From positions 32,001-96,000 of the forward strand of contig CAVSHF010000004.1 of NCBI GenBank assembly GCA_963727805.1: DNA of 64,000 nt, read 5' to 3'. The notes beneath the pieces are model-generated. The model ran no database searches, was not told the origin of the DNA, and worked only from the letters and a program-made list of their open reading frames with translations. Each line of letters starts with the position of its first letter. The first letter of the stretch is position 1. The translations under genes were made by a program, and so were the position numbers. Below, in pieces: positions 15,371 through 64,000 of the stretch. The stretch is from an uncultured Nitrospiraceae bacterium. Its GTDB lineage: Bacteria > Nitrospirota > Thermodesulfovibrionia > Thermodesulfovibrionales > Dissulfurispiraceae.

Positions 15371-16387
15371 TCATCCGACCATCGCTTCTTTTGCGCGCAT
15401 GGTCAACTGAAATATCTTTGTCGCTTCTTCAACAGTTCTCGAGCCGGTCCCGCAGGAAGGAGTGATCAGGGACTGGGAATAAACACTATCTGATCCGATG
15501 CGGGTATGCAATGCTGACACCCTCTTTTTCAAGAGGGTGGAGATATCTGTGTCAGAGACTGACAGAATCGCGTCCGAGGTCGGCACTATTCCCCAGGCCA
15601 GATATCCTCCCTTTTCGAAAAAACCTTTAAGATCTTCGTAATAAAGGGCAAGCGTATCGAAATATTCAAAGGCATCGAAATTGAGCATCCTGACGCCGCT
15701 TTGTATGATCATCTTCCAATCGGCCTTTCCGCAGCAATGTGTGCCGGATATGCCTCCTGCACCTTCGATGGCTGATACAGTGTCGCCGAGCAACCTCATT
15801 ATCTCGCTCTCCTTGACACCCATATAAGAAGAACTCCCGACGGCGGAGAAAATAGGTTCATCGATAAAAATAATCACCTCATCTGCAAATTGCTTTAGAA
15901 TATCAACCTGCCAGCGGGCTTTTGCCTGCAGGAGCATGGAGCCGACCTCACGTAATTCCTCGTCGAAATAAATAGCCGCTCCCCTGCTGTCTTTAAGTCC
16001 GAGGGTAAAGGTGAGGGGACCCGTGATGTGCCCTTTCAATAGCCTGAATTTTCTATGTTTGACGGATTTCAGAAAGGCGTGCAACCCGGCAGCATAATCT
16101 TCTGATATCGCGATCCTCGTACTGTCCGTATGTGATTCATAGAACCGCTCAAGCTCATCGCTTCCGTCCCTTTCGACGTGAACCTTTTGATGTTCCTCAT
16201 CGATTTTTAAAAAGGGCATTCCCTCGGCATACTGGAGGACCATCGACTCCCTGAAAGAGTATTTCGGCAACTGGGGCCAAAAGGGGATGTCGAAGACCGC
16301 CTCGATAAGGGCGCAGGCCTCCTGTGGGCGCGTGTGAGGGGTACTGCCTATGCCGGTGGTGGAAAAAGGGCTTATGATACTGGACAT
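15371..16387 (-). CDS. Core (folate-independent, MesB-like) methionine synthase
   Basis: Single MetE-type barrel: TGIGS.P, PFWPQLP, KGHITGP.T, FIDEP, zinc motif HCCG, LAWGIVP, ITPSCG. Confidence 0.7.
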   Translation of the reverse strand: MSSIISPFSTTGIGSTPHTRPQEACALIEAVFDIPFWPQLPKYSFRESMVLQYAEGMPFLKIDEEHQKVHVERDGSDELERFYESHTDSTRIAISEDYAAGLHAFLKSVKHRKFRLLKGHITGPLTFTLGLKDSRGAAIYFDEELREVGSMLLQAKARWQVDILKQFADEVIIFIDEPIFSAVGSSSYMGVKESEIMRLLGDTVSAIEGAGGISGTHCCGKADWKMIIQSGVRMLNFDAFEYFDTLALYYEDLKGFFEKGGYLAWGIVPTSDAILSVSDTDISTLLKKRVSALHTRIGSDSVYSQSLITPSCGTGSRTVEEATKIFQLTMRAKEAMVG

Positions 16388-45609: not shown

Positions 45610-48039
45610 TTGTACTGCCAAAGGCGGTCCGTAATCTTGAAAGGTGATTCCGCAAACACGCTTAAAGAAGAAATAGCTGAAATCGAGTCTCGCCTCGCCG
45701 AACTATATAAGGAACGGGACAGCCTTGATGAGCGTCTTCAGTCCTTGCAGGTAAAACTGCGGGAAGTTCTGTCGAATAATCAGCAAAAGAAGACTGTATC
45801 AGTCATTCTTTCGCCTGAAGAAAAAATTCATATTTTCCGTGATCTTTTCCGTGGTCGAGAAGACGTCTATCCTAAACTCTGGACAAGTAAGAAGACAGGA
45901 GCAAAGGGGTACAGTCCCGTTTGCCTTAAAGAGTGGCAATCAGGCGTATGTAGAAAGCCGACGGTAAAATGTAGCGAATGTAACAATCGGGCCTTCGCAC
46001 CAGTGACCGATAGTGTCATAAGACAGCACCTTGACGGACAGATTACAGCCGGTGTGTATCCTTTGCTTGAAGATGACACATGCTGGTTCCTTGCTGTTGA
46101 TTTCGATAAAAAAGAATGGGAGAAAGACGCAATTGCCTTTCTGACAACATGCGAAGCAAACGCAATTTTGGCTTACATTGAGCGGTCCAGATCCGGTAAC
46201 GGTGCGCACGTCTGGATCTTTTTCAGTGAGCCAGTCCCGGCTGTACTGGCCCGCCAGCTCGGTGAGTTCCTCATAACTGAAACCATGGAGGAAAGGCATG
46301 AGCTCGATATGAAGAGCTACGACAGATTCTTTCCCAACCAGGACACTCTTCCAAGAGGTGGGTTCGGTAATCTGATAGCGCTTCCACTTCAGAAAATTCC
46401 GCGTGAAACAGGCAATAGCGTCTTTGTCGATAAGAGCCTTACTCCTTATCCTAATCAGTGGGCTATCCTTGGCAATGTCGGCCACATCTCTTTTCCAGAA
46501 CTATCTCAATTTCTCGAAGAGAACATCAAGGCAAAAGGCCTCCTTGGAATTAGAACGAGCCAGGGCGACGACGAGTCTGCACCTTGGGAAAGCCAGTCAC
46601 TGTCCAAGCGCGTATTCACAAAGCTCACATGTGCCCTACCTGATCAAATAACCGTTGTTATCGCCAACAGGCTGTACATTAATGAAGAAGGTCTTCCTTC
46701 CCAACTTATAACTCGTATAAAACGTCTAGCATCATTTCAGAACCCTGAATTCTTTAAGAAACAAAGCATGCGCTTCTCGACGGCGAAAACTCCAAGAGTC
46801 ATTTGTTGCGCCGAAGAGGTTAATTCATTCGTCGCTTTGCCACGAGGCTGTCTGGAAGATCTTGGTAAACTCTTATCGATTAATGATATTAACCTCGCCA
46901 TCGACGACAAGAGATTTAGCGGTGAACCTGCCGATTTCATATTCCAAGGTGAACTTAATTCGCTCCAGAAAAAAGTTCTGAAGGAGATGCTTAATTATGA
47001 TACCGGGGTTTTCGTTGCTCCTCCCGGCATAGGAAAGACAATTTTGGGCATCAAACTTATAGCCGAAAGAAAGGTAAATGCTCTTATTCTGGTCCATCGC
47101 AAACCGCTTCTTGATCAGTGGCGTGCCCAAATTGCATCATTTTTAGATATGGATATAACGAATGTTGGACAGATCGGCGGAGCTAAAGATAAAGCAACGG
47201 GAATCATTGATGTCGCTATGCTTCAGAGCCTGGACAAAGAGGATGGCATAGACGATAGGGTCAAGCAGTACGGGCAGATAATCGTAGATGAATGCCATCA
47301 TATCTCTGCGGTTTCCTTTGAGCGCGTCATGATGGCGTCAAACGCGAAGTATGTTACTGGCCTCACTGCTACACCTTATCGGAGGGATGGGCATCAGCCA
47401 ATTATTATCATGCAGTGTGGCCCAATTCGTTATTCTGTGAGCACGAAGTCAGTGACGAAAGAGGCTTCGTTTCGACAGCTTTTAGTCGAACGTAAGACAG
47501 ACTTTTCATGCGAATGGGTCGAAGGCGACCATATTACTTCGATTTGGCCACCGCTGATAGCCGATGCTGCCAGAAACGATCTCATCTGTTCGGACGTACC
47601 TAATTGCCTCTCGGAAAGGCGCTCTCCCATTATTCTTACTGAAAGAAAAGAACACCTTGAATTGTTGAGAGGCTTATTAGAAGGATCAGTTGAGCATTTG
47701 GTCGTGTTGCATGGTGGGATGAAAGCCCCACAGCGAAGGGAGATGCTCCAGAGGCTTTTCAATACCCCGGAGACCGAAAAGCGTGCTATTTTGGCAACCG
47801 GACCATATATTGGGGAAGGGTTTGACGATCCGAGACTTGATACACTTTTTCTGGCTATGCCCTTTTCTTTCAAAGGAAAGATGGTGCAGTATGCCGGCAG
47901 ACTTCATCGCCAGCGTGAAAACAAGACTGAGATAAGAATTTACGATTACGTCGATAGTAAGATGCCGCTTCTCGATAAAATGTATAAAAGGAGATTGAAG
48001 GCTTATAAGTCTCTTGGATATGAGAAACTGGAGTTGTAA
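45610..48039 (+). CDS. AEP (TOTE-type) primase domain fused to SF2 DEAD/DEAH (ResIII-like) helicase
   Basis: LFRGREDVY, GVYPL...C.FLAVDFD, ERSRSGNGAHVW, GNLIALPLQ; then APPGIGKT, DECHH, TATP, GEGFD, QYAGRLHR. Start uncertain. Confidence 0.85.
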   Translation: MYCQRRSVILKGDSANTLKEEIAEIESRLAELYKERDSLDERLQSLQVKLREVLSNNQQKKTVSVILSPEEKIHIFRDLFRGREDVYPKLWTSKKTGAKGYSPVCLKEWQSGVCRKPTVKCSECNNRAFAPVTDSVIRQHLDGQITAGVYPLLEDDTCWFLAVDFDKKEWEKDAIAFLTTCEANAILAYIERSRSGNGAHVWIFFSEPVPAVLARQLGEFLITETMEERHELDMKSYDRFFPNQDTLPRGGFGNLIALPLQKIPRETGNSVFVDKSLTPYPNQWAILGNVGHISFPELSQFLEENIKAKGLLGIRTSQGDDESAPWESQSLSKRVFTKLTCALPDQITVVIANRLYINEEGLPSQLITRIKRLASFQNPEFFKKQSMRFSTAKTPRVICCAEEVNSFVALPRGCLEDLGKLLSINDINLAIDDKRFSGEPADFIFQGELNSLQKKVLKEMLNYDTGVFVAPPGIGKTILGIKLIAERKVNALILVHRKPLLDQWRAQIASFLDMDITNVGQIGGAKDKATGIIDVAMLQSLDKEDGIDDRVKQYGQIIVDECHHISAVSFERVMMASNAKYVTGLTATPYRRDGHQPIIIMQCGPIRYSVSTKSVTKEASFRQLLVERKTDFSCEWVEGDHITSIWPPLIADAARNDLICSDVPNCLSERRSPIILTERKEHLELLRGLLEGSVEHLVVLHGGMKAPQRREMLQRLFNTPETEKRAILATGPYIGEGFDDPRLDTLFLAMPFSFKGKMVQYAGRLHRQRENKTEIRIYDYVDSKMPLLDKMYKRRLKAYKSLGYEKLEL

Positions 48040-50808: not shown

Positions 50809-51078
50809 TTATTTATAAACATCACCACGAGGCGCGATATTGACAATGGCTATGGTGAGAATCTCCGGCATTAACGCAAAGACGATCCGATAATCGCCAA
50901 CGCGAAGACGGTAAAGTCCCCTCAACTCGCCGGTCAACGGTTTTACATGGCGGTGTTCAATAGGTGAGTTGCATTCAGCCAACTCCTGGAGATCTTTTTT
51001 TATCCGCTTGCGAAGGTCCCTGTCGAGCCGGGTGAAATAGGCTTCAGCTTTGGACGATATCTTAATCGTCCAGGTCAT
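50809..51078 (-). CDS. RelE/ParE-family toxin
   Basis: KPLTG...GLYRLRVGDYRIVF ... RGDVYK. Confidence 0.9.
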   Translation of the reverse strand: MTWTIKISSKAEAYFTRLDRDLRKRIKKDLQELAECNSPIEHRHVKPLTGELRGLYRLRVGDYRIVFALMPEILTIAIVNIAPRGDVYK

Positions 51079-51301
51079 TTAAGATTTTCCCGCCACCAGC
51101 GTGGATTTCGGCTAGGCCCTCTTTGCACTCTTCTAGGAAGCCGGGTATGCCAAGCAGTTCTAGGGTCTCTTTGTGTCTACCAATATACTCATCGGTCAGT
51201 TCCGTATATATGTCGGAAAGCGATCTATTTTCGTAACCTGCGATAGCTCTGATGACCTTGAGGCGGTCATCAGGTAGTCTTAATGTCGTTGAGCCTTTCA
51301 T
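51062..51301 (-). CDS. Antitoxin (RHH-like) of the RelE pair
   Basis: TLRLPDD N-terminus, acidic C-terminus, ETLE.L; overlaps relE. Confidence 0.75.
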   Translation of the reverse strand: MKGSTTLRLPDDRLKVIRAIAGYENRSLSDIYTELTDEYIGRHKETLELLGIPGFLEECKEGLAEIHAGGGKILNDLDD

Positions 51302-52469: not shown

Positions 52470-53882
52470 CTACTTGCCGAATGGACACACTGGATAGCGG
52501 CATTCGGCGCAATGCAGGCAGAGACCTCCGTGACCCAATGCGGCGAGGTCATCGCGGCCTATGCGTTCTCCTGCAAGAACACGCGGCACGACTACGTCGA
52601 AGATGGTAGTTTTATGATACATGCCGCATGCGGGGATACCGATTATCGGTACGGAACGAGTTGTGGAAGTATCGTCCAAATAGGCAATCAGAAACATAGC
52701 ACCAGGCAATACTGCAGATCCATACGTAATATCCTTTGCGCCAAGCTGGCGTATCGCAAACCGTGTCACGTCATCGGGGTCTACCGACATCCCGCCCGTT
52801 GTTATAAGCATGTCAGCCCCTTGCGCTAGCAGATCCTTCAGTTTTTCTTCTATTATTTTTTCATCGTCGGGAGCATAATGAATGCCGACAATGGTGCCAC
52901 CAAGTTCCGCTATCTTTCGGGACATAATCGGTCCAAAGGCATCGGCAATCCGACCATGATAGACTTCATTACCGGTGATTACAATACCTGCTTTTGGCTG
53001 CCGCATTGGTAGAACTTCAACAGCTCGCGGCTGTCCATGCACCGCCTGGACCGCTTTTTCAACGATAGTTTTCTTGACTACAAGCGGAATTGCACGCGTG
53101 GCAGCGACCACTTGGCCTTCGCGTACAACCGTATTGCCATGCAAAGATGCACACATCACGTCGCCGAGACGGTTAAAACGACGGAGTGCCTCGGTGTTTA
53201 TTTTCAGGAGGCCTTTTTGGGAAGCAACTAGGTTCAGCTTGCCTTCCTTAGGTTCGTCAGGTACAGACACACCACTCCCTTTCAGAGCATCAGCAATGAG
53301 AGCAGCTGCCTCATCTTCGTGTATCTCATCCTCCTGAATCGAAAGCACAAAAAGATTCTCCTTGCCCAACCGTTGCAGATGTTCAATATCGTCAGGACGG
53401 ACTATATGACCCTTGCGAAACGCACGCCCCTTAAATTCATCTTTTCGGATTTCGGTAATATCATGGGCAAGCGCCATCCCGATAGCCGCACTCACCGGTA
53501 CCGTCATGCCATCGTTGCGACTGCATGCTAATTCAGAAACATTATTATCAGCCCCGCCGAATATTTTGCTGAAACGGTCGTCAACAAGTTCGTGGATGCC
53601 CTGCTCAAGCATGCGGTATTTCTTCAGAAACTGTTTAGCCTCTTCTGTCAGACAGGCTCCGCCACCGTCCTTGCCCCCTGTTTGACAATCGACGAGCGCG
53701 AATCCAAGCCGCTTCTCCATTGCTTTGATATAGCCCCATGCTTTTCGATAGGATATGTTAACTTCCTTTGCCGCCTGAGTGATCGAGCCGTGCTTGTCTA
53801 TGGACTCAAGCAGGAATCTTCGTCCTCTGCCAAATACCGGTTGTCCATCTACCTCTATCCAAAGCTTCGAACGTATCTCCAT
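52470..53882 (-). CDS. ModE-type HTH fused to molybdopterin-binding (MoeA/MogA-like) domain
   Basis: G.GR..LL..I...GSI..AA....SYRKAW; then HDITEI...FKG.AF.KGH, TGGMSVDPDD.T, LPG.M, GGLC..C..C.YP.CPFGK. Confidence 0.8.
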   Translation of the reverse strand: MEIRSKLWIEVDGQPVFGRGRRFLLESIDKHGSITQAAKEVNISYRKAWGYIKAMEKRLGFALVDCQTGGKDGGGACLTEEAKQFLKKYRMLEQGIHELVDDRFSKIFGGADNNVSELACSRNDGMTVPVSAAIGMALAHDITEIRKDEFKGRAFRKGHIVRPDDIEHLQRLGKENLFVLSIQEDEIHEDEAAALIADALKGSGVSVPDEPKEGKLNLVASQKGLLKINTEALRRFNRLGDVMCASLHGNTVVREGQVVAATRAIPLVVKKTIVEKAVQAVHGQPRAVEVLPMRQPKAGIVITGNEVYHGRIADAFGPIMSRKIAELGGTIVGIHYAPDDEKIIEEKLKDLLAQGADMLITTGGMSVDPDDVTRFAIRQLGAKDITYGSAVLPGAMFLIAYLDDTSTTRSVPIIGIPACGMYHKTTIFDVVVPRVLAGERIGRDDLAALGHGGLCLHCAECRYPVCPFGK

Positions 53883-53901
53883 AGTAATCCTTCCCTCATT
53901 C

Positions 53902-53924
53902 CGTTATGGATTTATTGCATAACG
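53902..53924. promoter_or_regulatory. ModE-box-like operator upstream of the modE fusion
   Basis: CGTTATG-N9-CATAACG perfect 7-bp inverted repeat resembling the CGTTAT...ATAACG ModE consensus. Confidence 0.65.
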
Positions 53925-53928
53925 CATG

Positions 53929-54567
53929 TCAAAAAATATCATCTTTCTGAGACTTATAATATCCACCTCCGGCACATACTCGGCATAAGACTTTCTCCCC
54001 TTTACAAACTTCCCGCATGTCCTGAATATACTCAGCACACAAATCGCATCTTACCCTTCCCAACGGCCTGCCGGGTATGTCCTCGGGCTTAAGGTCTATC
54101 TTCACATCCATAACATCAAAAAGCTCCCTGTCAGTCATGATTTTATATGCCTGAAGCTGGGCCTCGTACTTGTTTTTAATCTCAGGAAAATATTCCTTCG
54201 CCCTCTGCCTCGATTCCTCTTTTGCTATAACCCTCACGGCCTTGCCAGTCTTGAGGTTCAGAAATGTTGCCGCCATCTTACCGTAGTCCATGAACTTCAT
54301 AGTGCGATGGCCCAGGCTGCATCCAGTAACAGACTGAACCGCATCAGTAGCACAGCGGTCCATTTCAACAAAGACGATAATACTCTTTCTGTCCTTCCCC
54401 TTCGGATCTTCGATGCCTATCTCACGGAGCCCGAGAATGGACATCTTAACTCCCAGCACTTGGCCAGGGCAGAGGTGTCCATGGATCCTTGTCGACTCAG
54501 CGAGAAGAGATTCAAACCCTGAAGTCCGATCCAGCTCTTCGCTCTTATTCATTTTGTCATCTCTCAA
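53929..54567 (-). CDS. FmdE family protein
   Basis: HGHLCPGQVLG, E.DRC..DAVQ..TGC..G, DYGK.AATF, C-terminal C..C...C..C. Confidence 0.88.
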   Translation of the reverse strand: MRDDKMNKSEELDRTSGFESLLAESTRIHGHLCPGQVLGVKMSILGLREIGIEDPKGKDRKSIIVFVEMDRCATDAVQSVTGCSLGHRTMKFMDYGKMAATFLNLKTGKAVRVIAKEESRQRAKEYFPEIKNKYEAQLQAYKIMTDRELFDVMDVKIDLKPEDIPGRPLGRVRCDLCAEYIQDMREVCKGEKVLCRVCAGGGYYKSQKDDIF

Positions 54568-55153
54568 TCAGGTCGATCATAGACCGAGTCACTCTTGCCA
54601 ATGTTTTATAAAATGAGAGATCAGCTGCATCTTCCATGTCCAGTGCGAATTGCGGCGCCCACTTTAGAATATGATCAGAAAGAAACCCTTTTGCGAGGTC
54701 CCGATAGTATGGTTCTTTTCCGGGATCACTATTCGCCTTCTGAAGAACAACAGCGAGGAAGTTAAGCTCCGCCCCGATGTGATCCGCCATGATGCCCTGA
54801 TTGTTGACAGTCAACCCGGCTTTGCTGTAATAGTCCCTGACTTCGTCGTATGCTTCTTGCATCAGGAGTCTTTTCGGTGACGTATAAACGGACTCCCAAG
54901 GAGGACATGGCAACTTGTAAGGACCGATAAATAGTCTGGTGTATTCCCATAACAAATCTTCCAACTCACTGTCTGACGAGATGTCTATTTTATCCAAGGC
55001 ATTCTTCAAGTCTGACAGAATATCCGGGACTGCTTCTGATAACAAAGCTCTCCAGCTATCCAACGTCTCTCTATCTGGTTTGCATAGATACATGCTTCCC
55101 AAAAGCCCGCATGCGTCTATCAGCTCGCTATCCGTCATCGTAGCATTTTGCAT
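54557..55153 (-). CDS. TorD/DmsD-family molybdoenzyme chaperone
   Basis: EYTRLFIGP, PPWESVY, DHIGAELNFL. Start after GGAG RBS. Confidence 0.9.
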   Translation of the reverse strand: MQNATMTDSELIDACGLLGSMYLCKPDRETLDSWRALLSEAVPDILSDLKNALDKIDISSDSELEDLLWEYTRLFIGPYKLPCPPWESVYTSPKRLLMQEAYDEVRDYYSKAGLTVNNQGIMADHIGAELNFLAVVLQKANSDPGKEPYYRDLAKGFLSDHILKWAPQFALDMEDAADLSFYKTLARVTRSMIDLIER

Positions 55154-55227
55154 AATCCGAAACTCCTTAAAGGAACTTTTGTGCAGGGGCAACCCAGTGG
55201 TTACCCCTGCGGTCTCTGGTTAAAAGC

Positions 55228-55818
55228 CTACTTCTTTATATTCTTTGCCTCTACGAACCTTATTGACGGGATGGTCAGTTTTGGGTCGGCAAAATGCGGC
55301 AGCCGGTCCTGAATCTTGGTTTTAAAAACTGGATCTGGAAAGGCATTGCCAGCTTCGACATCGGGCATTTTGCCATTTGAAAGGGCATAGCCCATGCAGG
55401 TTCTGACACAGGCAGGTGGGAGACCAGCCTTCAATCTGTGTATGCAAAAATCACACTTGTCCACCTTCTTTTCCTTTTCATTAAATTGAGGGGCACCGTA
55501 AGGACAAGCCGCCATACAGCGCTTGCATCCGATGCATTTCTTCTTGTCATGAAGAACTACGCCGAATTCCTCTTCCTTGGAGTACGCTCCCACAGGGCAA
55601 GCTTTCAGGCACGATGGTTCCTCACAGTGATTGCAAGAAACCGAAATATATCTCACTTCCGGATTAGGATACTTTCCCGCTTCCTGGATAATGACCCTCC
55701 TTCGTCTAATGCCGACGGGGAGGTCGAATTCCTGCTTGCAGCCGGACTCGCAACCCCGGCAAGCGATGCAATTATTTTCATTGTAAAGCCATGTCATCTG
55801 TTTAGGGTTCTTTGCCAT
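55228..55818 (-). CDS. 4x[4Fe-4S] electron-transfer subunit (DmsB/PsrB-like)
   Basis: CIACRGCESGC, CNHC..P.C...CP, CIGCKRCMAACP, CDFC...P.C...C. Confidence 0.92.
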   Translation of the reverse strand: MAKNPKQMTWLYNENNCIACRGCESGCKQEFDLPVGIRRRRVIIQEAGKYPNPEVRYISVSCNHCEEPSCLKACPVGAYSKEEEFGVVLHDKKKCIGCKRCMAACPYGAPQFNEKEKKVDKCDFCIHRLKAGLPPACVRTCMGYALSNGKMPDVEAGNAFPDPVFKTKIQDRLPHFADPKLTIPSIRFVEAKNIKK

Positions 55819-55829
55819 TTGTCCCTCCT

Positions 55830-58160
55830 CTACGCCCTTGTTACCTTAACGCCGATTTCTTTGTGGACAGCCATGCCTGAAGTTTTCTCAGACACACCAG
55901 CAAGGAATTGTCCATCTCCGGTGCCTTCGGGAGACCACCTGTTAATCTTGTTCATTGAACCTCTTGCGATCTTCCCGAACCCCCAATGTCCAAATCCATG
56001 ATGAAGAGCCACTACCTCCGGATGGATCCTCTCCGTTACCTGAACTGACCCCTTTGCCTTTGCATAAGGGGACTCTATCCATATAGGGTCTCCGTCCTTA
56101 AGTCCAAGCCTAGCAGCTGTGGCGGTATTCATGAGAAGAGGATTATCAGGCTTCATCTCCATCAGCCAGTCGTTGTTAAACGTCCTTGAATGGGTGTGTT
56201 CGGCCTGCTTATAGTTGACTAGATAGAGAGGAAACTCAGGGGTCGGATTGTATATAGGCTCAACATAGTCAGGCAATGGATTTAGTCCCTTCTTCGCCAT
56301 CTGTTCAGAATAGAACTCTATCTTCTTCGACGGAGTTGCAAAGCCTTTTTCTTTATACTTTTCATAATGGGTCTCGCCACCGATGAACACGGCTCCAGGA
56401 AGAGCCAACATTTCATCCAGGGTCTTTCCTATGGGTCCGTTTTTGAGCTGATCGGACATGTATTCCGGATAAGTATCAGGCAGGGTCTTGCCGTCCTTGT
56501 CCTTCAGTCCCATCTTTTTTGCCAGGGCGAGGATGAACTCCTGTTCAGTCATCCCGTTTATTACCGACTTGACCGCAGGCTGCCTTATTGACGTCGCGGG
56601 GAAGGTAACCCAGTTTCCATGTATCTCCCATCTCTCCAGGTAGTGACTGCCCGGTATCACGATATCAGCAAGCTCTGCTAGCTCGCTCATCATCGTATCC
56701 AGAACGACAACGTAATCGAGTTTCTTGACCGCCTCGATGTTCTTCTTCGTATTGGGGACAGACATAATAAAGTTTTGGAACATAAATACGCCTGCTCTGA
56801 GCTGGTAAGGTTGCCCTGAAATCATGGCATCCCTTGTCTCGGTGTATATCCCAGACGAATGAGCGAAGGGATACTTTGTACCTAGACCATCAATCCTAGC
56901 TGCCTTAGGTTTGTCCACGTCAAATGCCCTGCGCTTGCCCCCCTTTGCCTCTCTGCTTATCATTGTGCCGGGTTTATCGTACTGCCCCAAGAGAGCAGGC
57001 AACATTGCAATGGCTCTTCCGCCATCGGTTGCATTGGTGTGGTGCCCGGGGCCGCTCCATGTGTCGATGGCAGCGGGTTTTGTGGATGCAAGCTCTTTTG
57101 CTATCCTTCTAGTTGTTTCGGCTGGTACCGAGGTGATCTTCTCGGCCCATTCCGGGGTTTTATCTTTCACAAGCTCCGCATACTTATCGAAGCCGACTGT
57201 ATAATTATTTATAAACTCTTGGTCATGCCAGCCATTTTTAACTATCTCATGCCCCAGCGCGAGAGCAAATGCTCCGTCGGTGCCCGGTCTGATGGGAACC
57301 CATTCATCAGCCTTTGCGGCTGTCTGGTTATAGAAGGGATCGACATAGACCATCTTTGCGCCTTTAGCTTTCCCCCAATTCCAGATTCCCGGAAGGTGCG
57401 CCCACTTTGTAGCCGCAAGCATATTCCAGCCGAATACAAGGGCATACTTAGTATTGGCGAAATCGGGGAGTGGTCTGTCATCGCCCATCACCAGCTTAAA
57501 GGAGGCCTTTCTTGCGACATCGCAGGTATTGGAATGCATCGAGTAGTTTGGAGAGCCATACAGGAGGTTGAAGTCCGCTTGCATGTCGGTGAATGAGGAA
57601 TCCTCAGTGCACCAGAACATCGTCTCGGGTCCATATTTCTCTCGGATGTCTAATAGGTTTCTTGAAACGTCATCGAGGGCCTCCTCCCACGAAATGGCTT
57701 TCCACTTGCCAGATTCTCTCGGTCCCACTCTCTTCATAGGTGTTTTCAGCCTGTCGGGATCGTAAAGCGCTCTCGCCCCGGCATTACCCTTTGCGCAGAT
57801 CCTTCCGCCAAGAGTCTTTTTCTGTTCGTAATCTGTCGAGATATTGGCCACACCTATGGGGTTGAATTCGCTTGGTTCTATCTTAACGACTCTGCCATCT
57901 ACAACATGGACTTTTATCCCAGATGTCCCGCCGCACATATGGCATGTCGTATATATCCACTTGCCTTTCCCTGCCATTTTCTCCTCTGCCGATGCCTCCC
58001 TGAAAAGACCGAGTTTGTCATCCCACAGAAGGCCGCTCGCAATGGCTGCACCTGCAAGGGCTGACGACCATTTAAGGAAGGACCGCCTGCTAAATTCTTG
58101 TCCTGTCGTTTTTTCGAAAATGTCTTTTTCGTCTTCGGTGATCATTCTGTTTTCGCTCAT
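55830..58160 (-). CDS. Tat-exported DMSO-reductase-family molybdoenzyme catalytic subunit (Cys-ligated, PsrA/PhsA/SrrA/ArrA/AnrA-like group)
   Basis: SRRSFLK Tat motif, CHMC...C FS0 site, YDPDRLKTP, GSPN...HSNTC, IRPGTD, ADIV.P...YLE, C-terminal Mo-binding domain. Start after AAGGAGG RBS. Confidence 0.9.
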   Translation of the reverse strand: MSENRMITEDEKDIFEKTTGQEFSRRSFLKWSSALAGAAIASGLLWDDKLGLFREASAEEKMAGKGKWIYTTCHMCGGTSGIKVHVVDGRVVKIEPSEFNPIGVANISTDYEQKKTLGGRICAKGNAGARALYDPDRLKTPMKRVGPRESGKWKAISWEEALDDVSRNLLDIREKYGPETMFWCTEDSSFTDMQADFNLLYGSPNYSMHSNTCDVARKASFKLVMGDDRPLPDFANTKYALVFGWNMLAATKWAHLPGIWNWGKAKGAKMVYVDPFYNQTAAKADEWVPIRPGTDGAFALALGHEIVKNGWHDQEFINNYTVGFDKYAELVKDKTPEWAEKITSVPAETTRRIAKELASTKPAAIDTWSGPGHHTNATDGGRAIAMLPALLGQYDKPGTMISREAKGGKRRAFDVDKPKAARIDGLGTKYPFAHSSGIYTETRDAMISGQPYQLRAGVFMFQNFIMSVPNTKKNIEAVKKLDYVVVLDTMMSELAELADIVIPGSHYLERWEIHGNWVTFPATSIRQPAVKSVINGMTEQEFILALAKKMGLKDKDGKTLPDTYPEYMSDQLKNGPIGKTLDEMLALPGAVFIGGETHYEKYKEKGFATPSKKIEFYSEQMAKKGLNPLPDYVEPIYNPTPEFPLYLVNYKQAEHTHSRTFNNDWLMEMKPDNPLLMNTATAARLGLKDGDPIWIESPYAKAKGSVQVTERIHPEVVALHHGFGHWGFGKIARGSMNKINRWSPEGTGDGQFLAGVSEKTSGMAVHKEIGVKVTRA

Positions 58161-58170
58161 TCGATCCTCC

Positions 58171-58524
58171 TTACTTTGCAAATAAATTCCACGCGCCATT
58201 CACACCGCCGCTGTGGCAACCAGCACAGACTTGAGGGTCAACCTCTTTCCTTAATGAGGCCGCTGAACTGTCCCTCAGATCGACAGATTGATGACAGTCT
58301 GTACACAGCTTCGGCGTTGCGAGTTTCGATTCGAGGTGGACCCGGTGAAACATCTTATACTTTTTGTTGAGCGACACTTCCTTCAGGACACTTGCATGAC
58401 AGTTCAAACATTCCTTGTTGCTGAGTTTGGCTGCGTTCTTATGGAGGTCTACAAGGTTCTGCTCCAACGCAACCGCGCTCGTGGAAAACATCAGCACCAG
58501 ACAAATAACCAAGGCATTCCGCAT
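58171..58524 (-). CDS. Small periplasmic triheme cytochrome c
   Basis: Sec signal (AVA) and three CxxCH motifs: CLNCH, CTDCH, CAGCH. Confidence 0.85.
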   Translation of the reverse strand: MRNALVICLVLMFSTSAVALEQNLVDLHKNAAKLSNKECLNCHASVLKEVSLNKKYKMFHRVHLESKLATPKLCTDCHQSVDLRDSSAASLRKEVDPQVCAGCHSGGVNGAWNLFAK

Positions 58525-58802
58525 GATTTCCTCCTTTTATATATTGCTATTCTGCACTGACTCTGTGCTCCAATGCTTTGACCTGCCTCCATGCATAAGT
58601 GAGTAATCTTAGCGATATTAACACATATACTTTAGTATATGCGTTGAATACGTGTTGAATAGGAGTCAGCTCACTTGCCGTATGTCTCAGCTCAGGGCAT
58701 TTTCATCCTTTTCCCCTGTTATCAATTAATAATATACAGATTATTTTGGTATAGTTAAATATATGAAAGATTATACGATAATTCATGGAGGTTCGCAAAG
58801 AC

Positions 58803-59153
58803 ATGAAGAATATGATAGATGTCTTTAAGTCACTGACTGATGAGACCAGGCTCAGGATACTGAAACTCCTGGAAAACGGAGAACTCTGCGTTTGCGAGAT
58901 TGTTGCCGCTGTGAATGTTGTGCAGCCCCAGGTGTCTTTCCATCTCCGTACATTGAAACACGCCGGACTGGTCAAGGATAGCAAACATGGCAAATGGACA
59001 CATTACCGCCTCGACGATTCAGATATATTTAAAAGGTTTCTTTTGATGGGCGTACTGGAAAGGGTAGAGGGTGATAAGATCCTGAAAGATAGATCAAGAC
59101 TCGAAAAATTCCGCCAGGGCAAGGATGTTGCGGCTGCCTGTGGCAAGTGTTGA
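58803..59153 (+). CDS. arsR: ArsR/SmtB repressor
   Basis: FKSL.DETRLRI, ELCVCE, VSFHL..LK.AGLV; C-terminal CGKC. Confidence 0.9.
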   Translation: MKNMIDVFKSLTDETRLRILKLLENGELCVCEIVAAVNVVQPQVSFHLRTLKHAGLVKDSKHGKWTHYRLDDSDIFKRFLLMGVLERVEGDKILKDRSRLEKFRQGKDVAAACGKC

Positions 59154-59304: not shown

Positions 59305-59775
59305 ATGGATAAGAAACGTGTGTTGTTCGTATGCATTCACAATAGTGCAAGGAGTCAGATGGCACAAGCTTTTCTGAACTTGATAGCCGGGGATCGTTTT
59401 GTGGCTGAGAGCGCAGGTCTCGAAGCCGGTACATTAAATCCCATTGCAGTAGAAGCGATGGCTGAAGTGGGCATTGATATATCAGGCAATACCACCCGGA
59501 GAGCGTTTGATTTGCTTAAAAGCGGCAAGCGTTTCCAATACGTTATTACCGTTTGCGATGCGGCAAATGCACAGAAGTGTCCTGTGTTCCCCGGCGCGCT
59601 ACAGCACATAAACTGGAGTTTCCCCGATCCTGCTCAATTGCAGGGTACTCACGAAGAGAAAATGACGGAAGTCAGAAAGATTCGTGATGCTATTAAAGCA
59701 AAAATAGAGTCTTGGGTCTCCGATAAGAGAGAGCGCACCGGGGTTGAGATTCCACCTTTCAAAGTCGGGTTATAA
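59305..59775 (+). CDS. arsC: Thioredoxin-type (LMW-PTP fold) arsenate reductase
   Basis: [20 protein letters not shown]....CPVFP, W.F.DP. Confidence 0.88.
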
Positions 59776-59889: not shown

Positions 59890-59918
59890 TTGACATCATA
59901 TAAAATTTAGTTTATGTT
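59890..59918 (+). promoter_or_regulatory. Sigma-70 promoter with overlapping ArsR-type operator
   Basis: TTGACA-N17-TATGTT; ATAAA-N6-TTTAT palindrome at 59900-59915. Confidence 0.65.
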
Positions 59919-59939: not shown

Positions 59940-60887
59940 ATGCTAAAACAATTTGCCGACTATGTTACCTATGCCTTGCTGAAGCTGGAGCCTGCCAGTC
60001 ATGTCGGAGATGCGCTAAACTTCTTTATATACGATACCATAAAGATATTCTTATTGCTCACCACGATAGTTTTTGTCGTAGCGGTCATCCGTGCGTACTT
60101 CTCGCCAGAGAAGACCAAAAGAATACTAACGCATAAAAAAGAAATTATAGGTAATATACTTGCCGCCCTGCTTGGCATCGTCACTCCTTTCTGCTCATGC
60201 TCGGCAGTCCCTCTCTTCATCGGGTTCGTAGAGGCAGGAGTGCCACTTGGGGTCACTTTTTCATTTCTCATCTCTTCTCCCATGGTCAACGAAGTGGCGC
60301 TGATAATGTTATGGGGGCTTTTCGGATGGAAGATTGCTATGATTTACGCTGGAGCGGGTGTTGTCCTAGCGATTCTCTCCGGCATAGTCATCGGCAAGCT
60401 AAGGATGGAAAAGTACGTTCAAAATTACGTTTGGGAGATGCAGGTGGGTGAAATGGAGGTCACGGAAACCGGCTTCCGCGACAAGCTTGTGTATGCCCGT
60501 GGCTATACAGCAGACCTGCTAAAAAAACTCTGGCCCTATGTTGTTATAGGTATTGGCTTGGGAGCTGCCGTGCACGGGTACATACCGGCAGACTTTATCG
60601 TTAAATATGCTGGGCCGGATAATCCTATAGCGGTACTGGTTGCAGTTTTGATCGGCATACCGCTTTATAGCAATGCCGCCGGCATGATTCCAGTTGTTCA
60701 GGCGCTCGTGGGAAAAGGTATGGCCATGGGTACGGTGCTGGCATTCATGATGTCGGTCACTGCAATTTCATTCCCGGAGGCTGTAATACTGAAGAACGTA
60801 TTGAAGCTGCCTCTTATCGTCACCTTTTTTAGCATAGTTGCGGTAGGAATCGTCATTGTCGGATATCTGTTTAATGCCATTTTGTGA
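59940..60887 (+). CDS. arsP: ArsP (DUF318) permease
   Basis: FFIYD..KI, TPFCSCS..P, FL.SSP..NE, G.PLYSN..G..P, FMM.V...S.PE. Confidence 0.85.
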   Translation: MLKQFADYVTYALLKLEPASHVGDALNFFIYDTIKIFLLLTTIVFVVAVIRAYFSPEKTKRILTHKKEIIGNILAALLGIVTPFCSCSAVPLFIGFVEAGVPLGVTFSFLISSPMVNEVALIMLWGLFGWKIAMIYAGAGVVLAILSGIVIGKLRMEKYVQNYVWEMQVGEMEVTETGFRDKLVYARGYTADLLKKLWPYVVIGIGLGAAVHGYIPADFIVKYAGPDNPIAVLVAVLIGIPLYSNAAGMIPVVQALVGKGMAMGTVLAFMMSVTAISFPEAVILKNVLKLPLIVTFFSIVAVGIVIVGYLFNAIL

Positions 60888-60926: not shown

Positions 60927-61277
60927 ATGTCAGAGTGTGCATGCGGCGGAAATACCTATATTTTTTCATGTTCAGGCGCGGCAGACGTAGGGGCTCTATC
61001 TGATCGGATAGCCAGAAAATTGTCAAAGGATGGAAAGGGGAAAATGTATTGCATGGCTGCGGTGGGGGCGAACATCCCTGAAAAGATAGCACCGCTGAAA
61101 GCGGCCTTAGGTGCTGTTACCATCGACGGATGCTCCTCTTTATGTGCAAAAAAGGTGCTGGAAAATGCCGGCTTCAAACCCGTCTCTTATAACTTGGAGG
61201 ATTTCGGTTTTAAGAAGGGCAAAACAGATGTGAATGATGCAGCGATAGATCTTGCAATCGGAAAGTTAGGACTATAA
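60927..61277 (+). CDS. DGC-domain putative zinc-binding protein
   Basis: CSG...G..D..AR.L, C, IDGC...CA. Start after AGGAGG. Confidence 0.8.
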   Translation: MSECACGGNTYIFSCSGAADVGALSDRIARKLSKDGKGKMYCMAAVGANIPEKIAPLKAALGAVTIDGCSSLCAKKVLENAGFKPVSYNLEDFGFKKGKTDVNDAAIDLAIGKLGL

Positions 61278-61304: not shown

Positions 61305-61544
61305 ATGGAGATTAAAGTATTGGGTCCAGGCTGTGCTAACTGCCACAAGATGGAGGCGTTGGTGAAACAGGCTATCAAAGAGTTGGGCATTGACGCCAAA
61401 ATAGAAAAGGTGAGCGATATCCGCGATATAATGAAATATACAATGTCTACGCCCGGGTTCGTGGTGAACGGTAAGCTCAAACATTTTGGCAAACCTTTAC
61501 CAAGCCTCGATAAGGTTAAAGAGCTTATCAAATCGGAGGCATAA
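61305..61544 (+). CDS. Small thioredoxin-like redox-active disulfide protein
   Basis: IKVLGPGCANC ... STPG.VVNG. Confidence 0.88.
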   Translation: MEIKVLGPGCANCHKMEALVKQAIKELGIDAKIEKVSDIRDIMKYTMSTPGFVVNGKLKHFGKPLPSLDKVKELIKSEA

Positions 61545-61548
61545 TCTG

Positions 61549-61938
61549 ATGCAGGAGATTCTTAACATTTTCAAGGCCCTCTCCGATGAAACGCGGTTGA
61601 GGATATTGAAGCTCCTCGAACATGGAGAATTATGCGTCTGCGACCTATTTTCAGCCCTCGAAATGGTCCAGCCAAAGGTCTCTTTTCACTTGTCTGTTCT
61701 CAAAGACGCTGGATTGATAACGGATAGAAAAGAAGGGCGCTGGGTTCACTATCGCCTCGATGATAAGGACATACTAAGAAGGTTTATGTTGCTTACCGTC
61801 ATGGAGAGGGTTTCCGAAGATGTCATTAAAGATGATAGAGCGCGTCTCACGGCTTTTCTGGAAAGTAAGCAGGAAGCTAATAATAATGAAAAGACGACGA
61901 CAACGCCTATTAAGAAAAGTAAATGCTGCGGGAGGTAA
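61549..61938 (+). CDS. arsR: Second ArsR/SmtB repressor
   Basis: FKALSDETRLRI, ELCVCD, VSFHL; C-terminal CC. Confidence 0.9.
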   Translation: MQEILNIFKALSDETRLRILKLLEHGELCVCDLFSALEMVQPKVSFHLSVLKDAGLITDRKEGRWVHYRLDDKDILRRFMLLTVMERVSEDVIKDDRARLTAFLESKQEANNNEKTTTTPIKKSKCCGR

Positions 61939-61947
61939 TACAATCAA

Positions 61948-63027
61948 ATGAGCACCGTCACTAAGCGTCTCTCCTTTCTCGACCGCTATCTAACACTCTG
62001 GATATTTGCCGCGATGCTCCTGGGTGTTGGTCTTGGCTATTTTGTGCCGCAAGTAGAGGGTTTAATCAACAGTTTTCAGGTAGGTACTACCAACATTCCC
62101 ATTGCTATCGGCCTCATTCTCATGATGTATCCGCCCCTCGCAAAGGTGAAGTATGAAGAGCTGGGTGAGGTCTTCAAAAATAAAAAAGTTTTGGGACTTT
62201 CCCTAATTCAAAACTGGGTGATCGGGCCGATACTTATGTTTCTGCTGGCAATTATTTTTCTTCAGGATTATCCGGAATATATGGTAGGCCTCATTATGAT
62301 CGGGCTGGCGCGCTGTATTGCCATGGTCATTGTCTGGAACGACCTGGCGTGCGGAGATCCGGAGTACGCAGCCGGATTGGTCGCCTTCAATTCGATATTT
62401 CAGGTGCTCTTCTTCTCGGTCTATGCCTACATATTCATAACAATCCTGCCTGCGTGGTTCGGACTCAAAGGTGCGGTTGTGCATGTCACAATCGGCCAGA
62501 TCGCCGAAAGTGTATTTATCTATCTGGGGATTCCTTTTCTGGCTGGAATGTTGACCCGGTTCAGCTTGCTCAAAATTAAGAGCCGCCAATGGTACGAACA
62601 CGAATTCATACCGAGAGTAAGCCCTCTTACTCTTGTCTTCCTGCTATTTACTATAGTTGTGATGTTTTCCCTGAAGGGAAATTATATAGTCAGGTTGCCA
62701 ATGGATGTAGTGCACATTGCAATACCCTTACTGATCTATTTTGTAGTAATGTTTCTTGTTTCGTTCTACCTCGGCAGAAAGATAGGAGCAGATTATGCCA
62801 AGACCGCTACGCTTTCGTTCACTGCTGCGAGCAATAATTTCGAACTGGCCATAGCCGTTGCCGTAGCTGTTTTCGGGATAAACTCTGGCGCTGCCTTTGC
62901 TGCAGTCATCGGCCCTCTTGTGGAAGTGCCGGCCTTAATCGGCTTGGTAAACGTTGCACTCTATTTTCAGAGAAAATATTTTTCGGACAAATACTGCAAG
63001 GTGGCTGAGGTAAAACCTCATTTGTAA
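61948..63027 (+). CDS. acr3: Acr3 arsenite efflux permease
   Basis: [45 protein letters not shown]. Confidence 0.95.
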
Positions 63028-63062
63028 TATGTAACACGGTGAATATCGGAAAGGAATACCGC

Positions 63063-63752
63063 ATGCTCAAGATCGATCCTGCACCAGATTATCCGACCGA
63101 AGAAGGCCGATACCTCAGAGGGAACGACTATTCTCCAGTGGCCGTCGCTGTTATCCTGATCTATGACAGCGATAAAATCCCAAAGGACATCGAAATGCTT
63201 GTGAGGACCGGGGTCGAAGCGGGGGCCGCGCTTTCCGGCACAATACAGACCGAAAACATCGGCGTCGAAAAGATGGTCTGCAATATCATTGGTAATCCCA
63301 ATATCCGGTATCTCGTACTGACCGGCCCTGAATCTCCCGGTCATTCGACCGGCGAAGCCATAATGTCACTGCTTAAAGATGGTGTCGATGAGCGCAAGAG
63401 GATCAGGAACACCGGTGCGCCTACACCTTATCTATTCAATCTTCCAATAGAATATATCGAGCGATTCAGAAAACAAATTATTTCCGTAGTCGATCTACTT
63501 AACCGTGGAACTCCCGATCTCGTAAGAAAGGCTGTCTGGTCCTGCTACCAGGAAACCCCAACGGAGTTTGAGGAGCATATGTTGTACGATATCGGCGCGT
63601 ATCCTGAAACGCCGATAAGTGCCGTCCTCACATGGAGGGTTACTAATCCTGCTTTTGAACCAAAGGATGAACAGGAGCGAAAGCAGAAAGATGATTTTGC
63701 AAAGAAGATGGAGGAGATCAGAAAAAAAGTTCAGGAGAAACACAGAACATGA
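63063..63752 (+). CDS. Soluble MtrA-like (tetrahydromethanopterin S-methyltransferase subunit A) corrinoid-binding protein
   Basis: G.Y..G...SPVAV, EAGAA.SG...TEN.G.EK...N...NPNIR.L.L.G.E..GH.TG, GVD....I, P...N.P...IERF.KQ; no C-terminal TM anchor. Confidence 0.85.
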   Translation: MLKIDPAPDYPTEEGRYLRGNDYSPVAVAVILIYDSDKIPKDIEMLVRTGVEAGAALSGTIQTENIGVEKMVCNIIGNPNIRYLVLTGPESPGHSTGEAIMSLLKDGVDERKRIRNTGAPTPYLFNLPIEYIERFRKQIISVVDLLNRGTPDLVRKAVWSCYQETPTEFEEHMLYDIGAYPETPISAVLTWRVTNPAFEPKDEQERKQKDDFAKKMEEIRKKVQEKHRT

Positions 63753-63776: not shown

Positions 63777-64000
63777 GTGAAACTTGTTAAGGTTTTTATA
63801 TTGATTGGCTTTCTGGTCTTTTCATATGGCACCGGCTGGGCGGCCGATTTCGATGCGTTGCTAACAAAAGCAAAGATAGAGAAAAAAGTCGTAATGCTGG
63901 AGCTCGGATCAGTTGGTTGCGTTCCCTGTGATCAGATGAGACCGGTGATGGACAAGCTCACGCAGAACTATAAAGGCAAGCTCGAAGTCATCTTCGTGGA
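63777..64000 (+). CDS. Exported thioredoxin-family protein (runs off the window)
   Basis: GTG after GGAGG; signal peptide; MLELGS.GCVPC..M.PV. Confidence 0.8.
   Translation, partial: MKLVKVFILIGFLVFSYGTGWAADFDALLTKAKIEKKVVMLELGSVGCVPCDQMRPVMDKLTQNYKGKLEVIFV

Follow-up and report, generated by a model that had tools for sequence, protein, structure and literature searches.

A soluble MtrA-fold protein with a predicted cobamide site recurs in the arsenic operons of Wood-Ljungdahl anaerobes

Introduction

Enzymes that make or remove methylarsenic in anoxic soils have a direct bearing on arsenic in rice, and the accessible parts of two papers (PMC10579292; 10.64898/2026.08.27.747368) point only to incidental methyltransferases of methanogens. 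The window analysed here, a stretch of 64,000 nucleotides from an uncultured Nitrospiraceae bacterium, raises the question of what a homologue of MtrA, known from the Mtr complex, is doing directly behind an arsenite efflux gene. A first-pass annotation of the sequence proposed a B12-dependent, ArsM-independent module for arsenic methylation or demethylation, a proposal that is partly supported by the present analysis. A protein with a predicted B12 site that is fixed in the ars operons of Wood-Ljungdahl anaerobes offers a single, small and soluble candidate for assay, and a relative encoded directly after arsM in Methanosarcinaceae could be approached by genetics in a genus available in culture. 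If the proposed role is true, it would give a function to orphan bacterial MtrA homologues, warn against reading metagenome 'mtrA' annotations as methanogenesis markers, and bear on the presence in ars clusters of HgcA, another corrinoid protein.

The gene, its operon and its host genome

The MtrA-like open reading frame begins with ATG preceded by a ribosome-binding-like GGAAAGGAA, starts 35 bp downstream of the acr3 stop codon, is separated by 24 bp from the thioredoxin gene that follows, and differs from four close homologs by mostly synonymous codon changes (82–109 versus 36–42); it is a real, conserved gene. Its product carries the motifs TENIGVEK (63–70), NPNIR (78–82) and ESPGHSTG (90–97) and matches Pfam MtrA PF04208 (E 1e-38; 133 bits, cut-off 25) and the sequence of PDB 5LAA (E 6e-34), with Dissulfurispiraceae, Nitrospirota, as the top named protein matches. 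The model for cytoplasmic MtrA homologues, NF002126, is passed marginally (168.7 bits, cut-off 161), while the MtrA equivalog TIGR01111 (129.5 bits, cut-off 249) and the MtxA model NF010654 (92.9 bits, cut-off 279) are not reached, the protein also being separate from the MtxA clade in the tree. Among Pfam and NCBIfam models only the MtrA family is matched; neither a SAM-binding class I methyltransferase domain nor a match to PF03599 or NF040863, which mark HgcA, was found. The protein is a soluble MtrA homologue and not an Mtr subunit.

The genes run in the order arsR, arsC, then arsP, DGC, ArsE-type thioredoxin, arsR, acr3, the MtrA-like gene, thioredoxin and a CcdA-like gene (Table 1). Motifs, Pfam match and neighbours thus bear out the first-pass description of an MtrA-like protein directly after acr3 and co-oriented with arsP, DGC, thioredoxin and arsR.

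Table 1. Features of the arsenic operon and their coordinates in the window
Feature	Position	Strand	Basis or remark
ArsR-family repressor, first copy	58785..59153	+	Pfam and NCBIfam
ArsC-like arsenate reductase, LMW phosphatase fold (Cys10, Cys84, Cys92)	59305..59775	+	PF01451; TIGR02691 118 bits, below cut-off 174
Promoter-like site TTGACA-17-TATGTT	59890..59918	+	Overlapped by inverted-repeat, operator-like motif 59897-59916
ArsP-family permease (methylarsenite efflux type)	59940..60887	+	PF03773 E 4e-78
DGC-domain cysteine-rich protein	60927..61277	+	PF08859; six cysteines
MTH895/ArsE-type small thioredoxin (CxxC)	61305..61544	+	TIGR00412 above cut-off; PF13192
ArsR-family repressor, second copy	61549..61938	+	PF01022, NF033788
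acr3, arsenite efflux permease	61948..63027	+	TIGR00832 465 bits, cut-off 283
Soluble MtrA-fold protein gene	63063..63752	+	229 aa; Pfam MtrA, PDB 5LAA match, AlphaFold model
Thioredoxin-fold protein, hydrophobic N-terminus	63777..64000, extends beyond window	+	Pfam
CcdA-like membrane protein	G000:C4:96159-96848, beyond window		Next after thioredoxin-fold gene 63777

The promoter-like site may, weakly, mark the start of a unit from arsP to ccdA, the scans for promoters (9 sites versus 8.9 in shuffles) and terminators (5 versus 5.3) being at chance level. An inverted repeat, CATATA-N6-8-T(A/T)TATG, precedes three ars units (58624-58641, 59897-59916 and G000:C3:93715) and is a possible ArsR operator; it has 8 matches in the genome versus 1, 6 and 1 in three simulations, the motif having been defined after the sites were seen. 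In small shares of two RNA runs, a 226-nt contig with 9 differences covers 63035-63260, and among the pieces listed from these shares no contig bridges the junction of acr3 and the MtrA-like gene.

The host genome (100% complete) agrees with the further first-pass remark that no other mtr gene and no arsM lie in the window: it holds a single PF04208 match, no match to MtrH, and no ArsM, the best score being 62 bits against a cut-off of 263. It also encodes cobS and cobQ, together with a complete Wood-Ljungdahl cluster (cooC-acsE-acsD-acsC-acsB-cooS) on another contig than the window. In the window itself, the earlier suggestion of a methyl pool represented by cooC, folD and a MesB-like gene stands in part: folD and a gene for a CooC/ParA-type ATPase are found amid housekeeping genes at a distance of about 25 kb from the MtrA-like gene, and the MesB-like candidate (15374-16387) has no Pfam or NCBIfam match and is unconfirmed. 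A second ars cluster of the genome, arsR-acr3-arsC-hgcA-hgcB (G000:C3:93222-97030; L115), has an acr3 with 93% protein identity to that of the window, and each of the two clusters contains a different corrinoid protein.

Recurrence of the arsenic linkage

Relatives were sought in GTDB genomes; of the 401 obtained, the best 80, nearly all from uncultured MAGs, were examined. To label neighbours, profiles were made from the BLAST hits of window genes and locus representatives, and the labels were checked against NCBIfam with arsM representatives (L072 above the cut-off, L038 below it) and an hgcA representative. With acr3, arsP, arsM, arsA and arsD taken as core ars genes, such a gene lies within 5 kb at 40 of these best 80 loci, and at 26 of the 42 with long flanks, against a chance level given by the 0.66% of the gene's own genome that falls within 5 kb of a core ars gene.

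The split between linked and unlinked loci tracks the tree. Among the best 80 of 401, clade B (mostly Desulfobacterota; support 100/99) shows the ars link at only 4 of its 38 loci, and at 2 of the 17 whose flanks are long, whereas the others, including the window gene, are linked at 36 of 42 (24 of 25 with long flanks). The latter are called non-B here because their support as one clade is weak; a single 'clade A', given 89 by FastTree, received only 74/84 from IQ-TREE and was set aside. The arsenic association is therefore real and clade-specific, and the recurrence expected from the first-pass annotation holds for the non-B loci of many phyla and fails for clade B. Ten taxon labels occur among the non-B loci of the best 80, including Acidobacteriota, Nitrospirota, Planctomycetota, Aerophobota, Bipolaricaulota, Chloroflexota, Lentisphaerae and Spirochaetota, and under at least eight phylum labels the gene retains its place within the ars unit in many different gene orders. 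The six unlinked non-B loci comprise three on short contigs, one with DGC and trx beside it at the edge of a contig, one (L055) in which the MtrA-like domain is fused in frame to ArsC, and one true exception (L033). The remaining 34 of the 38 clade-B loci in this set occur in varied contexts without ars genes, and three of them adjoin Tso selenoprotein genes; in these three (L027, L028 and L058, all Desulfobacterota), the clade-B gene is directly 3' of tsoC, with tsoB upstream in L027 and L058.

No constant neighbour was found among the 42 non-B loci of the best 80 of 401. Within 5 kb, arsR occurs at 31, acr3 at 28, trx at 20, arsP at 18, arsC at 18, arsM at 13, DGC at 9 and hgcA at 4, arsP or arsM is nearby at 28, and Trx/CcdA is often directly 3' of the gene. 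Neither the DGC protein, at 9 of 42 loci, nor the ArsE-type thioredoxin, at 20, is a constant companion, against the earlier idea that they may serve as thiol partners, and an MtaB-like, substrate-activating methyltransferase is no recurrent neighbour in the loci examined. Only L055 is counted as an ArsC fusion, because P0237, in which Pfam also finds ArsC and MtrA, looks like a frameshift read-through; likewise, the SAM-methyltransferase fusion P0168, a single sequence, was rejected as ArsM (46 of 263 bits). The family is patchy: among 201 genomes of the window's own order, 9 match at E 0.001, only 3 of them at more than 70% identity, and the MtrA-like protein finds no counterpart in a congeneric genome that is 98% complete.

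The ArsC fusion, the arsC genes near 18 of 42 loci and the frequent Trx/CcdA downstream could be read as signs of a cob(I)amide reductant that, fed by ArsC, thioredoxin and CcdA, would reduce pentavalent arsenicals or produce arsines; hydride generation by cob(I)alamin is the subject of a title cited in the accessible part of PMC13262295. Such a reductant is very improbable, as arsenate is already reduced by ArsC and the co-occurrence with AcsC described below would be left unexplained.

Structure and the predicted cobamide site

An AlphaFold model of the 229-aa protein, built on an alignment of 30 sequences (pLDDT 86.6), was compared by Foldseek and matched 5L8X and 5LAA with a target TM of 0.90 (E 1e-15); all 7 chains found below E 0.001 are MtrA structures. 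Residues were mapped with the residue list in the accessible part of PMC4915002 and a sequence alignment to 5LAA, in which Tyr18, Thr53, Glu54, Asn55, Gly57, Asn64 and His84 correspond to Tyr17, Thr63, Glu64, Asn65, Gly67, Asn74 and His94. By this alignment, the axial His84/Glu54 of MtrA become His94/Glu64, and the protein has a predicted base-off/His-on cobamide site. Among the best 80 of 401 loci, His94 is kept in 41 of 42 non-B and 38 of 38 clade-B loci, and Glu64 in 42 of 42 and 37 of 38, respectively, in keeping with the first-pass remark that the His of the GH motif is the cobalt ligand in the MtrA of methanogens. Asn82 of 5LAA, the backbone NH of which contacts the corrin according to the part of PMC4915002 available, corresponds to Pro92, with Pro at 40 of the 42 non-B loci of the same set. 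Cys73, one of two cysteines in the protein (the other is Cys161), is invariant in all 80 of these best loci and stands at an Ala in 5LAA; an extra insertion follows strand 1. At a single non-B locus of the 42 (L005:629-1549; P0028), the cobalt-ligand His is replaced by Arg and Thr63 by Lys, and the protein has an extra N-terminal domain.

The first-pass observation that a charged tail takes the place of the membrane anchor was also confirmed. No membrane helix was found, the top 19-mer hydropathy of the protein being 0.92 versus 2.18 in canonical MtrA; the C-terminal tail is 65% charged, has a best hydropathy of -1.8, and forms in the model an amphipathic helix (203-228) that is no membrane anchor. 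The tail is not junk, since its elements TWRVTxP and EPKD-ER, which end in helix 203-228, are conserved among 121 proteins.

Related lineages and fusions

A sister clade (P0204) bears a C-terminal Fe-S domain, PF04060, which corresponds to AcsC positions 4-50; the N-terminal cluster domain of AcsC is the site of action of the activator RACo. Among the best 80 of 237 metagenome loci of this clade, a redundant set in which edge fragments were allowed a looser acr3 threshold, an ars link is present at 67, including all 21 that have 3-kb flanks, and 65 have acr3 as a neighbour, mostly with the MtrA-like gene directly before it. Another relative is fused to ferredoxin.

In archaea, a distant soluble MtrA of 182 aa (the P0343 clade; support 100/100) occurs in 25 of 121 Methanosarcinaceae genomes, and the clade of the window protein in 1 of 81. 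Of 20 extended P0343-clade loci (from 28 matches), 7 are part of ars clusters and 13 are without ars genes; L114 is a further locus in an ars cluster. The gene directly follows arsM in L114 (6837-8362) and L174, and directly follows DGC in five cases. The P0343-clade loci concerned (L114:6837-8362, L174, L177, L179, L181-L183 and L192) have the His motif ESxH, without the Gly. NF010654 was considered as an ars-linked Methanosarcina paralogue and rejected, as NF010654 is MtxA.

The nearest outgroups are fusions to a thymidylate-synthase domain (P0183-P0192, P0226, P0228, P0241 and P0243), which point to methyl donation and possibly represent a cobamide-linked route to dTMP, and sister clades include TusA fusions. 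Because the thymidylate-synthase fusions lie between both ars-linked groups in the tree, the bacterial and Methanosarcinaceae groups appear to reflect two recruitments, as far as the phylogeny suggests. Further architectures were encountered in passing. In L104:5322-6596, L105:769-2007, P0124 and P0129, MtrA is joined to a C-terminal Cys-rich helical domain, often with an N-terminal TusA-like domain; a neighbouring gene repeats the Cys-rich domain, and no ars genes were seen in the three stretches examined. In L107-L110 (Nitrospirota) a Cys-rich-MtrA-DUF4346 fusion is found, followed in L110 by an ArsM-like fragment of 121 aa.

These wider contexts lend some weight to a general housekeeping role in the methyl or cobamide metabolism of Wood-Ljungdahl organisms, with the gene carried along in ars islands and its product not acting on arsenic; examples would be the recycling of methionine and SAM for ArsM, or a broader response to metalloid and thiol stress. 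The 34 clade-B loci in varied contexts (three of them by Tso genes), the 13 of 20 Methanosarcinaceae loci without ars genes, and the thymidylate-synthase and TusA fusions all agree with it. It is nonetheless rather unlikely, given the position kept in the ars unit under at least eight phylum labels, in the Fe-S clade and in the distant archaeal clade, the in-frame ArsC fusion, and a host genome that has no ArsM to serve.

Partners at the genome level

The 42 non-B loci of the best 80 of 401 come from 40 carrier genomes, all 40 of which have full-length AcsC-type matches (E 1e-87 or better). As background, AcsC occurs in 14 of 137 genomes from the order of an Acidobacteriota carrier and in 42 of 251 from the class to which a Pirellulales carrier belongs; in the window's own order, the figure is 173 of 201, so that AcsC is near-universal and the Nitrospirota carriers are uninformative on the overlap. 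In this Acidobacteriota order, 10 carriers were found; AcsC is encoded by 9, and the other has a match of AcsD size near a contig end. The set of 40 already includes 9 of these 10 carriers, which may be close kin. Among clade-B genomes of the best 80, 31 of 35 have AcsC, and of the 4 without it, one has AcsB and three yielded neither protein; one of these three is a chromosome in a single record, on which the gene is present twice. AcsC may also be a proxy for the lifestyle of strict anaerobes rich in cobamide. The first-pass link to the Wood-Ljungdahl pathway thus stands at the genome level and not in the window.

ArsM is present above its cut-off in 27 of the 40 carrier genomes (30 at E 1e-45), and the MtrA-like protein is therefore no plain substitute for it; 'ArsM-independent' describes the host genome and not the family, which has arsM within 5 kb at 13 of 42 loci. 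The Wood-Ljungdahl idea of the first-pass annotation is better supported than its ArsM-independent and DGC-partner ideas. MtrH was found in 4 of the 40 carriers.

The co-occurrence with AcsC and the absence of a fixed partner would be explained equally well by a protective role, in which the protein is a cobamide-binding decoy or chaperone that shields the corrinoid and nickel enzymes of the Wood-Ljungdahl pathway from arsenite and methylarsenite, or binds arsenic through Cys73 and Cys161, without net catalysis. Although the invariant Cys73 is in its favour, this role is unlikely: the protein retains the His-Glu pair that methyl cycling requires, it has only two cysteines, and the fusions to ferredoxin and to an AcsC-type Fe-S domain suggest that the cobalt undergoes redox activation.

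Proposed function

The reading put first, tentatively and with confidence clearly short of even, is that a soluble MtrA-fold protein was recruited into the ars operons of Wood-Ljungdahl anaerobes as a predicted cobamide methyl carrier, which would pass methyl groups from the Wood-Ljungdahl pool to trivalent arsenic without oxygen. The cobalt would cycle between Co(I) and methyl-Co(III), held His-on through His94/Glu64. AcsE is the bacterial pterin-binding counterpart of MtrH; as MtrH is mostly missing, re-methylation of the cobamide is proposed to proceed either by AcsE from methyl-THF or from methyl-CoFeSP. As(III), and more readily methylarsenite, would then attack the methyl group, to yield a pentavalent methylarsenical and Co(I), and methylarsenite would thereby be removed without oxygen, alongside efflux by ArsP and Acr3. 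Where ArsM is present, the carrier would complement it, and ArsC, thioredoxins and CcdA, as putative partners, would supply reduction within the same regulon.

Methyl transfer to trivalent arsenic is preferred because 28 of the 42 loci have a nearby arsP or arsM, each of them linked to methylarsenite, and because ArsH and ArsI, the usual removers of methylarsenite, require oxygen. It is also the direction known for methylcobalamin (PMC13262295, accessible part), although for the present protein the direction is argued by analogy with general chemistry. Against the carrier, clade B keeps the same residues and is ars-linked at only 4 of 38 loci of the best 80, and a second methylating route would be partly redundant in the 27 of 40 carriers that have ArsM. 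The Pro at position 92, where MtrA has the corrin-contacting Asn, and the absence of any constant neighbour for a substrate-activating methyltransferase also count against it. A predicted complex of the 229-aa protein with the AcsE of its genome (score 0.00, mark 0.32) weighs neither way.

Alternatively, the transfer could run in reverse, with the protein acting as an anaerobic demethylase whose cobamide strips the methyl group from a methylarsenical into the Wood-Ljungdahl pathway while Acr3 exports the arsenite. This would suit acr3 as the commonest neighbour (28 of 42 non-B loci of the best 80 of 401; 65 of 80 in the Fe-S clade, best 80 of 237) and the methyl sink on offer with AcsC in all 40 carriers, and corrinoid methyltransferases have been implicated in the demethylation of DMAs(III) by methanogens (accessible parts of PMC10579292 and 10.64898/2026.08.27.747368). 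A demethylase remains improbable, however, since the removal of a methyl cation from trivalent arsenic is reasoned to be chemically unfavourable, no MtaB-like activating methyltransferase recurs nearby, and arsM as a neighbour (13 of 42) would invite a futile cycle.

In the broadest terms, it is a possibility somewhat below an even chance that a dedicated, ArsR-controlled cobamide family couples the Wood-Ljungdahl methyl pool to the making or breaking of C-As bonds without oxygen or SAM, with at least two recruitments from the MtrA fold (the bacterial family and the distant Methanosarcinaceae clade), parallel to the unrelated HgcA.

Relation to known systems

With MtrA of the Mtr complex, the protein shares the fold (TM 0.90), the cobalt-ligand His with its Glu partner, and the nucleotide-pocket residues. 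It differs by lacking the membrane helix, an mtr operon and an MtrH in the genome, by its ars neighbours, and by the insertion after strand 1, Cys73, Pro92 and TWRVTxP with the charged helix, in a separate clade (100/99). MtxA (NF010654; mtxXAH operon) and P0343 (NF002126 core) are also soluble MtrA-fold proteins, but both form clades separate from the query, and P0343 scores 263 on NF002126 versus 168.7 for the query. HgcAB (NF040863, NF040864) resembles the present case in that anaerobes encode this corrinoid protein inside or close to ars clusters; the accessible part of 10.1101/2022.10.17.512643 reports control of the ArsR type and a phenotype with As(V). HgcA, however, has an unrelated, CoFeSP-like fold with a membrane part, whereas the 229-aa protein matches only PF04208. 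ArsM (NF008823) occurs in the same operons and has the same proposed class of product, but it is a SAM-dependent class I fold, a domain that the 229-aa protein does not have. The side reactions of MtaA/MtaB in methanogens are similar as cobamide-based arsenic methylation or demethylation in anoxia, methylcobalamin-dependent arsenic methylation being described as a side reaction of MtaA in the accessible part of the review PMC13262295; as far as these sources extend, they are incidental, not As-regulated and of other folds, whereas here a dedicated gene lies in an ars unit.

In the literature, MtrA homologues in some bacteria are mentioned without a function in the accessible part of PMC4915002, and the activity of Asgard MtrA-like proteins is called unclear in that of PMC11291895. 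A full-text search, largely outside subscription journals, yielded no link between an MtrA-like gene and ars operons: 'mtrA' occurs 0 times in the main text, so far as accessible, of 10.64898/2026.08.27.747368, 10.1101/2022.10.17.512643 and PMC13262295, and the accessible parts of PMC10579292, PMC13188914 and PMC11362671 contain no such link. For P. mercurii ND132, an arsR-arsP-arsE-DGC operon is described without mention of MtrA in the accessible part of 10.1101/2022.10.17.512643.

Other features beside the operon

Divergent from arsR, the stretch 52470-58524 (-) encodes a small multihaem cytochrome, a Tat-exported molybdopterin oxidoreductase, an Fe-S subunit, a TorD-like protein, an FmdE-like protein and an HTH-molybdopterin-binding fusion. 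The oxidoreductase, which has the Fe-S motif CHMCGGTSG and scores best among NCBIfam models with PhsA (444 of 694; ArrA 235 of 1600), is, judged from its sequence, a candidate respiratory arsenate or antimonate reductase. A similar set lies within the ars cluster of L002 and adjoins that of L003. The block of molybdenum-enzyme and ars genes is flanked by an AEP-TOTE primase-helicase gene and small toxin-antitoxin-like pairs (45610-48039, 50809-51301; G000:C4:97320-102837), with an 802-aa ORF of motifs similar to the AEP-TOTE gene downstream, and it may be a mobile island.
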